From: a virus
Lineage: Duplodnaviria > Heunggongvirae > Uroviricota > Caudoviricetes
DNA: 41,681 nt
Virus record (IMG/VR): IMGVR_UViG_2606217106_000020
Direction: 5' to 3' (one strand)
Of the stretch, positions 9,001-12,000 are shown piece after piece (positions within the stretch are counted from its first letter, which is position 1; each line of letters starts with the position of its first letter). A program made the position numbers.

Positions 9001-12000
9001 TCAGAAGGGCTTATGAACTCATCTTTTTTGTAGGGAACCGCTAATGCTGCATCACGTCTGCGAGGCAGCTTGCTTACTTCCTCGCGCTTTTTCATGATTA
9101 GTTATCCTTTAATAACCTATACAGTTTTGTAGGGGTACATCCTGAGGATATTGTTAAGTTCGTAGCACGCCTTTTCCGCCCATCATCGTATAAACGAAAA
9201 CCAGTAGTAGACGAATTTTCTGCGTCAAAAACTATAGACAGTATAGCGTCCCCAGACTTTTTTTGCCATTCGCATGTGCCGTTAGTTGGTTTCGTCATCT
9301 GTAGACGCCAGTCAAGAACGCCATCACTTATAGCTGAGAGATCGTTTAGTACATCTAGTACTGATTGATATCTTTCATTTGGATCTACATGAATGCATTT
9401 GTTTACTATTGTTATCAATTTTTTATGTATATGGGGAGGATATTCTTTTAATGGATAGCAGCCATTAATTATCGACTCTCTGAGTTGTTCAATCGTGCTA
9501 AATGCAGATCTTTCTCTTTCAAAATTATCATGTCCAACACACATTCTATATATGGTTAATCCTGCCTGATATATGTCATATGTGAAATTATAATCATTTG
9601 TTGATAAAGAAAAATATTCCGGTGGCACATGAAAATGATATCCAAACTCAGGCGCAGCTCTCGATTCCTCATTGACTAACTGAGATAATCCAAAGTCAGA
9701 TAGCATGGCCTCATTTCTGTTTGATATCATGATGTTATTAGGTTTTATATCAAAATGCATAAGACCTTTTGAGTGTATATGATAAAGTCCACTTAAAAAT
9801 TGAATAGAATACCGTATTATCTCCCTGCTTGTAAGATTATTTTTTTTCATTAATTGGTTTAGCGAACCATTATGATAAAATGGCATGGCTATATAGATAT
9901 TGCTCTCACATTGAGCAGCATACTGAACTTGCACAATATTTGGATGTGCATGTTTATAGAGAAGCCTTGCTTCATTAAAGTAGTCGTCGTGGTTAGTGTT
10001 TTCTTTTTTTTCTATTTCTTTAATCACCAAGTCATGAGCTAGGTGTCTGTCATGAGCCAGATATACTTTTGAAAAACAACCCTGTTCTTCTAGATCACGA
10101 ATCCATTCGAATTCTACATCAGCTCTTTTGTATGGAGTTAGCATCCCCTTACCTCCGCAGATAGTGCAGCCAAAACAGCTTCATTTGTTTCAGTTGTAAA
10201 ACCAGAATTATCGATTCCATTTATATTGCGGTGTGACTTCAATATTTCTTTATACTCGATCTCTGTTAGGTTCAATGATGATTTCATGCCAGATTTTCTA
10301 ATAGTGTAATATCTTCTTACATCACTGCTTGAAAATGCTTCTTGAATAACAGCTTCTATATAAAGGCGGTCAATGCTAAGATTATCAGAGTTTGATTCAG
10401 TAACGCGTATGGCAGCTAATTCAACATTATATAAATTAAGAATATCGAGGATGTTATTTCTCACATACTTTAACTTTTCTGGTGTGTCTAAGGTCGAAGG
10501 TATTTTAATAACATCAACACATTTGAGTGCAGACTCATTAGTGCAATATACAACAAAAGATGTAACTTTGGGCGCCGCTCTAACACCTAGTATTCTCATT
10601 TTTTATATCCTATTTTAGAATCAGGCCGCATCTCTGCGACCATCCATCATCCAAACGTCTCTTCACTCATCCGAAGAAGCAGCAATCCGGGTCAGCACGC
10701 ACAAGCTCAAGCGCATCAGTCAGCGAAAGTTCAGTACTGTACTGATGCCATTTCATATCCTTCCGCATCCAATAGATTTTCCATCTATCCAGAGAACGTA
10801 TGTACTTGATTCTTGCTGATGGCAGGATGTTTGTTTCACCTGGATTGCCCTGCCACACGGGGCGCTGTTCGCCGATATCTATCGTTTGGTCATTGATGCT
10901 ATAAACAATATCCAGTTCATTGCGGATATGTTCAGGCGGCCTTATGCTTTCAATGAATTGGTTAACTTCTTTTTTGACCGCTTGATATTCAAGGTCAGTG
11001 AACGCCATCTATCCTCCTCACCCAAACGTCTCTTCAGGCCACTGGTTACCAGCTATGTGACGATGAAGTCACGAACTTTTCAGCCACTCCCTTGCCTCGA
11101 TGTCATCCAGATGGCGAGATTGCTTCAGAATACCAGCTACATACTCCACCTTTGCTACTTGATGATAAGGCAACGTTATTGGCCTATGATCTTGGTTGAT
11201 GCTTGTAAATTGGTATTCTCCGTCTCTGTCATAGCCAAGAACTTTGATCATGTTGTGTCCTTCAACAGTTCTGACAAACACCTCATCCCCCGGGAATACT
11301 TTGGTGTTAGGCTCTATGAGTACATATTCTCCTGATTTTATTCTGGGCCACATGCTGTCTCCTTTCACACGAAGACCAAAGGCATCTGGATCATCGCTAT
11401 AAATTTTGAGCCACCCATCGCGCTCTTCGGTCATCTCGATGGCACCATCAACACCAAGAATTGCCTCACCAACCACGCGCACTAACCCTTTTCTTACCTG
11501 ACCGACAAAAGTTAAAGAATCTGAGCATGATGCAATTGGTGTTACATCATGTACCAAATCAAGCCACCCATTAGGTAACCCAAGTGCGGCTTCAAATTTT
11601 CTTGCTAGTTTATCCCCTATGTTTCGAGTGCTTTTTTCACCGGAGACTTGCGTGAGTTGAGAAGGGCTAACCCCAAGCTTATCGGCAAAGCTTGCATTAG
11701 TGTTACCCGCGATTTTTTTATGCTCATCTAGCAAAAACGCCAGATTTGATTTGCGAATATCTTTGTTTTCCATCTCACAATTTTCCCTCTATTTAGCAAA
11801 TGGATAAATACGCAATATGATAAATTTACATTGCGGTTGATTTATCAAAATGGTAAAGTTATTCTGTGTGATAAACGGAGGCACTAATGAGTAATGAACT
11901 ACTACGCTGGCGAAAAGAGGCTTCTAGTGAGGAATGGAAGCGACTCGCCGCATTAGCGAAAACTTCAGTTGGCTATCTTGACCAGATTGCATATGGATTT

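Follow-up and report, generated by a model that had tools for sequence, protein, structure and literature searches.

A predicted RuvC-fold pseudo-nuclease linked to the Stk kinase in a mosaic prophage with 933W-type cargo

The closest described counterpart of the locus considered here is the Stk module of the Stx2 (Shiga toxin) phage 933W, on which Tyler and Friedman (2004) and Friedman et al. (2011) reportedly worked. Our analysis covered a stretch of 41,681 nucleotides (nt) from a virus of the Caudoviricetes (IMG/VR record IMGVR_UViG_2606217106_000020), referred to below as the window, in which four open reading frames (ORFs) lie downstream of the repressor gene cI on the minus strand. The ORF of 153 amino acids (aa) is named gene A, the gene of the Stk kinase gene B and a 54-aa ORF gene C; the fourth ORF encodes a 113-aa DUF3024 protein. 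In 933W, stk is co-transcribed with cI and aborts infection by phage HK97 (PMC3564112). The kinase displays little activity as long as cells are uninfected and becomes activated upon HK97 infection, and a study of enterohaemorrhagic Escherichia coli (EHEC) found no virulence-associated phenotype for stk (PMC3681748). Infection-induced tyrosine-kinase activity and HK97 exclusion are known from the literature on 933W only (PMC3564112, PMC3681748). A 933W lysogen furthermore excludes phage lambda about 10^6-fold in dependence on the lambda immunity region, an effect that this study assigned to no particular 933W gene (PMC6989128). The Stk system of 933W was published as a kinase alone, and obligate partners A and C are not discussed in the accessible literature.

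In lambda, the same genomic slot holds rexA and rexB, which are co-transcribed with the repressor gene in the lysogen and are harmless until a heterologous phage infects, upon which infection is aborted (PMC3564112). Proteins and chemistry are unrelated, since Rex consists of a sensor and a membrane channel, whereas a kinase, a predicted pseudo-RuvC and a small peptide are encoded here. Hex of phage 434 is another example of cargo in the interval between cI and N. Staphylococcal Stk2, PD-T4-6 of E. coli and the MAD6 protein of the MADS system resemble Stk in the use of a Hanks-type kinase domain as a defence enzyme, and Stk2 has been reported to be activated by a phage protein and to carry out mass phosphorylation (PMC13276650). 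PADLOC searches matched the kinase domain of Stk to mad6 (6e-50) and to PD-T4-6 models (up to 9.7e-38), in each case over the kinase core only. The scores stayed below the NCBIfam family cutoffs for MAD6 (121.6 vs 460) and PknB_PASTA/Stk1 (122.3 vs 450), and neither a PASTA domain nor any other accessory domain is shared with the PD-T4-6, MAD6 or Stk1-PknB kinases. The catalogues list no RuvC-like partner for these kinases, whereas the Stk family is equipped with A and C and with a C-terminal domain of its own. PADLOC 2.0 holds no model for A or C, and full-text searches turned up nothing in which Stk, or any other kinase defence, was connected with a RuvC-like protein. Within the literature searched, neither the operon of three genes nor its pseudo-RuvC component appears to have been described.

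The initial annotation of the window had likened the kinase to Stk of 933W. The type of system was correctly named, but the block is not an analogue: it is the Stk module of 933W itself. Positions 8856-11496 (strand unspecified), comprising L0084, L0083, stk, L0081 and the terminator tM, are 98.6% identical to the 933W locus on DNA level (blastn). The 933W annotation lists the same four ORFs in the same order, with tM at the same place, and the position after cI is likewise shared. On protein level the identities are 347/348 for Stk, 152/153 for L0083, 110/113 for L0084 and 53/54 for L0081; the sole difference in Stk is R16, which is S in 933W. From this DNA identity and the one to three substitutions per protein it follows that the locus is already known, and the occurrence of the Stk module in another E. 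coli prophage is ordinary. Differences from 933W concern these substitutions and the flanking immunity region, where the N-terminal half of cI, the operator OR and cro are BP-4795-like and the operator OL is not 933W-like.

Linkage of the kinase to genes A and C

The main new result of our study is that gene A is an obligately linked partner of the kinase. In the window, gene A (10138-10599, minus strand; L0083 of 933W) and the kinase gene (9098-10144, minus strand) overlap by 7 nt (GGATGCTAA; ATGCTAA), in agreement with the initial annotation, which had noted that the stop of the 153-aa ORF overlaps the kinase start. A scan of one genome per species with the A alignment as query returned 39 loci, distributed over Gamma-, Beta- and Alphaproteobacteria, Bacteroidota, Firmicutes and Acidobacteriota, at 28-68% identity. 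In all 39 an Stk-type kinase gene started between -8 and +9 nt from the A stop on the same strand. The reverse test, a scan of viral contigs with the kinase alignment, gave the same picture: A was found directly upstream in 61 out of 62 Stk-family kinases with upstream DNA, and in none of 15 unrelated kinases in the same output. In the sole exception (L086, 45-548 and 602-1438), the Stk-family kinase gene has been truncated at its 5'-end by an IS1 insertion (InsB) and represents an inactivated copy.

A and B also co-diverge (r = 0.92), with mean pairwise identities of 44% and 45%, respectively. Sampling of close relatives was considered as a source of the linkage and rejected, because identities reach down to 28% and some of the contexts are not prophages. 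Repressor, A and a kinase of 345-349 aa always followed each other in this order in Klebsiella (59% identical) and Proteus (69%), the repressors being of four unrelated types, and a small ORF of 53-59 aa after the kinase was called in 6 of 8 places. The pair follows an integrase gene in Terasakiella (44%) and the Wadjet genes JetC/JetD on a metagenome contig. Taken over the 39 loci, the neighbourhoods are rich in helix-turn-helix/S24 repressors, integrases, methylases, AbiEii/OLD-type ATPases and transposases, which fits mobile defence cargo.

Gene C (8931-9095, minus strand; L0081 of 933W) begins 2 nt past the kinase stop and encodes a protein with an isoelectric point of 10.0. It had been listed as a possible ORF only and turned out to be a conserved third member of the operon: an ORF of 50-72 aa follows the kinase in 38 out of 38 genome loci with downstream DNA, usually with an overlap of 4 nt. 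Common to these ORFs are the motif MK...[S/T]R at the N-terminus, in which the Arg is invariant, and an aromatic residue at the C-terminal end. Their mean pairwise identity is only 22%, compared to 45% for B, and they co-diverge with the kinase (r = 0.85). This conserved position, together with the match of the window's ORF to PHROG 4063 (2.8e-39), identifies C as a real gene. Thus, A and C flank the kinase in an A-B-C operon, and the kinase is essentially not found without both of them.

An intact kinase and a RuvC fold with altered active-site positions

The 348-aa product of gene B matches the Pfam Pkinase model with 2.2e-46 (158.8 bits vs a cutoff of 31.7). The Hanks catalytic core is complete, comprising K42, E58, H130-F-D132-I-K134-P-N-N137, D150-F-G, P175-E176 and R258. 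The HFDIKPNN and DFG motifs named in the initial annotation are located at residues 130-137 and 150-152. The catalytic Lys and Asp residues, on which the annotation had made the activity of the kinase depend, are conserved on alignment (K42, D132, D150): K42, E58, D132, K134, N137, D150FG, P175E, R258, W279 and W293 do not vary across 38 members of the family, drawn from several phyla. By sequence, the kinase is predicted to be of the active type in every family member. HFD in place of HRD in the catalytic loop marks it as a non-RD kinase, and the DIKPNN loop is of the Ser/Thr type by sequence. The catalytic core (residues ~20-260) is followed by an orphan C-terminal domain (~262-348), a profile of which found no match in PDB sequences or Pfam. 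The proposed lysogen-side cargo with an exclusion system thus holds, as cargo of the cI operon around a catalytically intact Hanks kinase.

Sequence searches with gene A retrieved no Pfam match (E <= 0.01), no PADLOC match and no PDB profile match, and the NCBIfam RuvC model scored 12.5 bits against a cutoff of 163. The homology searches suggested in the initial annotation for the two unassigned ORFs identified the 113-aa protein as DUF3024/PDC-S43 and the 153-aa protein as RuvC-like (PHROG, PGAP). The database labels of the latter read 'RuvC-like Holliday junction resolvase' (PHROG, RefSeq) and 'RuvC family protein' (PGAP). An AlphaFold model based on an alignment of 34 homologues reached a predicted local distance difference test score (pLDDT) of 92.4 and a predicted template modelling score (pTM) of 0.88, and superposes on RuvC over its full length (Foldseek E 1e-9, template modelling (TM) score 0.80). 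A profile alignment of A to E. coli RuvC by hhalign was weak (probability 1.4%); only the structure comparison was decisive. This weak match places R7 on RuvC D7 (GVR vs GID) and R65 on E66 (AIR vs AIE), and in the model R7 and R65 lie at the ends of beta1 and beta4, in agreement with the RuvC positions.

The residues at these positions were compared in 127 representatives of the A family, each from a different cluster at 50% identity. At position 7, 126 of them have Arg and one has Ser, and an acidic residue never occurs; at position 65, 101 have Arg and 26 have Lys. From the RuvC carboxylates D7, E66, D138 and D141, only the last is kept in gene A, as E140. RuvC and gene A thus differ not only by an identity of ~15%, but also by the replacement of D7 and E66 by invariant basic residues. 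At least 125 of the 127 representatives share R47, R78, E68, E82 and E87, and 123 share E140. This conservation speaks for a selected, remodelled pocket and not for a decayed enzyme. On the basis of alignment and model, A is predicted to be a pseudo-nuclease with a basic, phosphate-binding groove. An active resolvase was rejected, because the RuvC catalytic residues are absent family-wide. Since the curated RuvC models are unmatched, the RuvC labels describe the fold and not the enzyme, and it is misleading to annotate gene A as 'RuvC family protein' or 'Holliday junction resolvase'. TEFM, a mitochondrial protein with RuvC fold which is not a nuclease, was among the structure matches, and A is grouped with it by analogy. 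The A family is small (442 clusters at 50% identity) and was found only beside Stk kinases.

A very divergent RuvC-like/kinase pair was observed on IMG/VR contig 3300005932_000467 (L121, 2487-3975); its kinase shares 31% identity with Stk. The Pfam RuvC threshold is reached by the partner (29.4 bits), although Lys occupies the position of the catalytic Asp (D7). This pair may hold an intermediate place in evolution, with true RuvC on one side and the family of Stk partners on the other.

A proposed gating mechanism and its alternatives

Stk of 933W is made from the cI transcript, is nearly silent in the lysogen and is switched on by HK97, and the cell dies before progeny are formed (PMC3564112, PMC3681748). 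We consider it probable, without regarding it as settled, that the locus encodes a kinase system for abortive infection, made up of three proteins, and that A, B and C act as a single functional unit in which A gates the kinase. According to this model, A would not cut DNA, and its remodelled basic RuvC pocket would bind a phosphate-bearing ligand. The likeliest ligand would be branched DNA from phage replication or recombination, and a phage protein would be the alternative. Ligand-bound A would gate the kinase as a sensor or regulatory subunit, C may be a short-lived regulator or pseudosubstrate of the kinase, and DUF3024 would work separately from A, B and C. The suggestion in the initial annotation that the partner ORFs may be sensors or regulators is thus still plausible for the 153-aa and 54-aa proteins. 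More tentatively, the family might represent an uncatalogued and widespread three-component antiphage system, with ~440 clusters in at least 5 phyla, in which A senses branched phage DNA or a phage protein without cleaving it and turns on the kinase, and C acts as a brake.

Several points weigh against the gating model. The accessible literature assigns no role to A or C. Linkage and co-divergence of A, B and C, as read from the sequences, would also be expected if adjacent genes were simply inherited together. There is a small chance that E68, E82, E87 and E140, which are acidic and conserved, belong to an unconventional catalytic site. For the pRM promoter, transcription is carried over by analogy from 933W and can only be presumed here, where the promoter region is BP-4795-like. 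Finally, plasmid-borne stk alone is said to have excluded HK97 in the work of Friedman et al. (2011), and a small HK97 protein is said to be the trigger. If the former is the case, A may tune or broaden sensing and would not be essential for HK97; if the latter is the case, the trigger need not be DNA.

The same data can be read in other ways. Tight translational coupling from A to B to C would also suit a toxin-antitoxin system, in which Stk is intrinsically toxic and A and/or C are stoichiometric inhibitors, until a phage protein titrates them or host shut-off stops their resupply; A would then sense no ligand. C is small, basic and fast-evolving (22% vs 45% for B), as labile antitoxins often are, and lysogens produce Stk that is almost without activity as long as no infection occurs (PMC3681748). 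The same slot behind cI holds toxin-antitoxin-like cargo in other cases, namely HigB/HigA in BP-4795 and an MqsA-like protein in Kluyvera. However, this explanation leaves the full RuvC fold and the strongly conserved remodelled basic/acidic pocket of A unaccounted for, and no antitoxin-type DNA-binding domain is present, so that we rate it as possible, though rather unlikely. The pocket itself could be taken as the seat of an activity: the kinase would sense infection and bind or phosphorylate A, which would then attack phage or host DNA as a structure-specific nuclease. The full-length RuvC fold, the invariant E68, E82, E87 and E140, the conserved S91, S92 and Y97 as possible phospho-acceptors, and the RuvC-like/RuvC family protein names in PHROG and PGAP are in line with such an effector role. 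Against it stands the Arg at the D7 position in 126/127 representatives, the first carboxylate being universally required in nucleases of the RNase H fold. Furthermore, the E66 position is Arg/Lys in 127/127, even in the very divergent L121 partner the D7 position is occupied by Lys, gene A has no match to the Pfam RuvC model and the NCBIfam RuvC score is far below its cutoff (12.5 bits vs 163), and the published phenotype was attributed to the kinase activity. This makes an effector role of A improbable.

Two further explanations can be given. Published work treats only Stk, the defence catalogues list PD-T4-6 and Stk2 as single genes without an A or C model, and DUF3024 is truly separable; Stk might therefore act alone, with A, C and DUF3024 as unrelated passengers sharing its transcript. 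Passengers, however, are not kept beside a partner at 28% identity, and the A-B linkage holds in both directions (39/39 and 61/62), across phyla and in unrelated contexts. Overlapping start and stop codons of A and B, their co-divergence, and the conserved position and motifs of C also contradict this view, which we regard as very improbable. A module that is not primarily directed against phages would phosphorylate host proteins and alter lysogen physiology or virulence. It is carried by Shiga toxin (Stx) phages of pathogenic E. coli and is expressed in the lysogen (PMC3564112), but in EHEC stk gave no virulence-associated phenotype and the kinase showed little activity unless cells were infected (PMC3681748), and environmental bacteria from many phyla carry the module beside defence genes. 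We give this last explanation hardly any weight.

The gating model bears on the way in which kinase-based defence senses infection. This question becomes testable with a fixed unit of three genes, one of which encodes a subunit that is derived from a nuclease and probably binds a ligand, HK97 being the known trigger phage for the Stk system. The partners of the kinase have been ignored in the accessible literature and in the defence catalogues, among them a protein of predicted RuvC fold whose catalytic acids have turned into Arg.

Operon layout, the DUF3024 gene and the mosaic immunity region

The operon starts with cI (11069-11773, minus strand; 234 aa; Peptidase_S24 3.8e-16), ahead of the cargo. 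All four ORFs of 113, 153, 348 and 54 aa reported downstream of cI were found on the minus strand in our ORF list. They match PHROG 3467, 3875, 2361 and 4063 with E values between 1e-39 and 1e-142. As each ORF belongs to a curated phage family and the block is 98.6% identical to 933W, chance ORFs are excluded. The terminator reported after the block corresponds to tM of 933W and is located directly after the 54-aa ORF (8911-8932, minus strand; terminator scan and sequence). Read from 8932 to 8911, it consists of a stem of 8 base pairs, 6 of them GC, followed by a T-run, and would end the cI-cargo transcript. The terminator scan detected no other terminator-like site on the minus strand between cI and this hairpin. 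With all genes on the same strand and no such intervening site, the layout is compatible with read-through from cI to tM.

The block had been described as markedly AT-rich. This applies to genes A, B and C, with a GC content of 0.35-0.37 at a window mean of 0.49, but not to the 113-aa gene (0.453), which is close to cI (0.443). A single AT-rich island was thus rejected, since only A-B-C is AT-rich. The two ORFs which had been regarded as unknown partners of the kinase are not equivalent either, the 153-aa protein being the linked partner and the 113-aa protein an independent moron. Hence, two independent pieces of prophage cargo lie inside the cI/pRM operon, the A-B-C operon and the DUF3024 moron.

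The DUF3024 gene (10667-11008, minus strand; L0084 of 933W) encodes a protein that matches PF11225 over residues 4-113 (1.6e-31; 109.2 bits vs a cutoff of 24.9) and the PADLOC single-gene defence candidate PDC-S43 over residues 1-113 (6e-42). The AlphaFold2 model reached a pLDDT of 90 and gave no convincing fold match. In the full-text literature, 'DUF3024' retrieved one unrelated mention. Its distribution is independent of the kinase: only 1 of the 39 pair-carrying genomes has it, and it is absent from the A loci of Klebsiella and Proteus. Without the kinase it occurs after a Rac-type repressor in Kluyvera and beside dinI and tail-fibre genes in Rahnella. On contig L077 a 97%-identical kinase module lies directly behind another S24 repressor, without DUF3024. 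An integral kinase subunit was rejected on these grounds, namely the 1/39 loci, the occurrence alone, the different GC content and the 97%-identical module lacking it.

A pair of 19-nt direct repeats brackets the DUF3024 gene on the minus strand. Copy 1 (TGAAGAGACGTTTGGGTGA on the coding strand) is located at 11018-11036, just upstream of the gene, and copy 2 at 10647-10665, in the leader of gene A. They are 95% identical and 371 nt apart (repeat search and regular expression), with the consensus TGAAGAGACGTTTGG[G/A]TGA on the coding strand. L077 contains a single related copy in the A leader (~2470-2545), which suggests an empty site, so that DUF3024 looks like a moron insertion into the leader of the A-B-C operon. 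The gene recurs with the module in a diverged form in Erwinia and in Proteus-like phages, and an accessory relationship is therefore possible.

Outside the cargo, the window is a mosaic of BP-4795-type immunity specificity joined to 933W-type cargo. The identity to 933W ends inside cI at 11496 and just beyond tM at 8856; it resumes at 8673 and continues through nutL and N. The interval in between (8673-8856; pL/OL) is not 933W-like. The cI protein combines a 933W-like C-terminal S24 half with a BP-4795-like N-terminal DNA-binding half, and is identical to 933W CI in 168 out of 234 positions. Positions 11400-12473, comprising the N-terminal half of cI, cro and part of cII, are 94.5% identical to BP-4795. 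In BP-4795 the slot between cI and N is occupied by HigB/HigA-like genes instead of Stk cargo, which points to a slot where cargo can be exchanged, the recombination point lying within cI. The region 8700-12200 was covered to at least 80% in 29 out of 5,426 complete E. coli genomes, with 98.7-100% identity among the matches listed.

Further observations concern the neighbouring regions. Directly downstream of N, a 237-aa ORF (7332-8045, minus strand) stands where 933W has the 156-aa L0079; it has a zinc-ribbon-like CxxC...CxxC motif (CTRCGQ...CKKCES) and no Pfam match. Direct repeats of 36 nt and 49 nt, in three copies each (89-94% identical), were found at 12619-12778 and 13458-13550, upstream of and within a 360-aa ORF (12809-13891) which has a QEQEQEQE run and no Pfam match. 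The repeats encode 'HQPQQPEADWVNP'; they might be iterons of an origin or stem from a duplication within the replication region. This region is not of the 933W O/P type, the next gene (13898-14638) encoding an IstB/DnaC-like ATPase.

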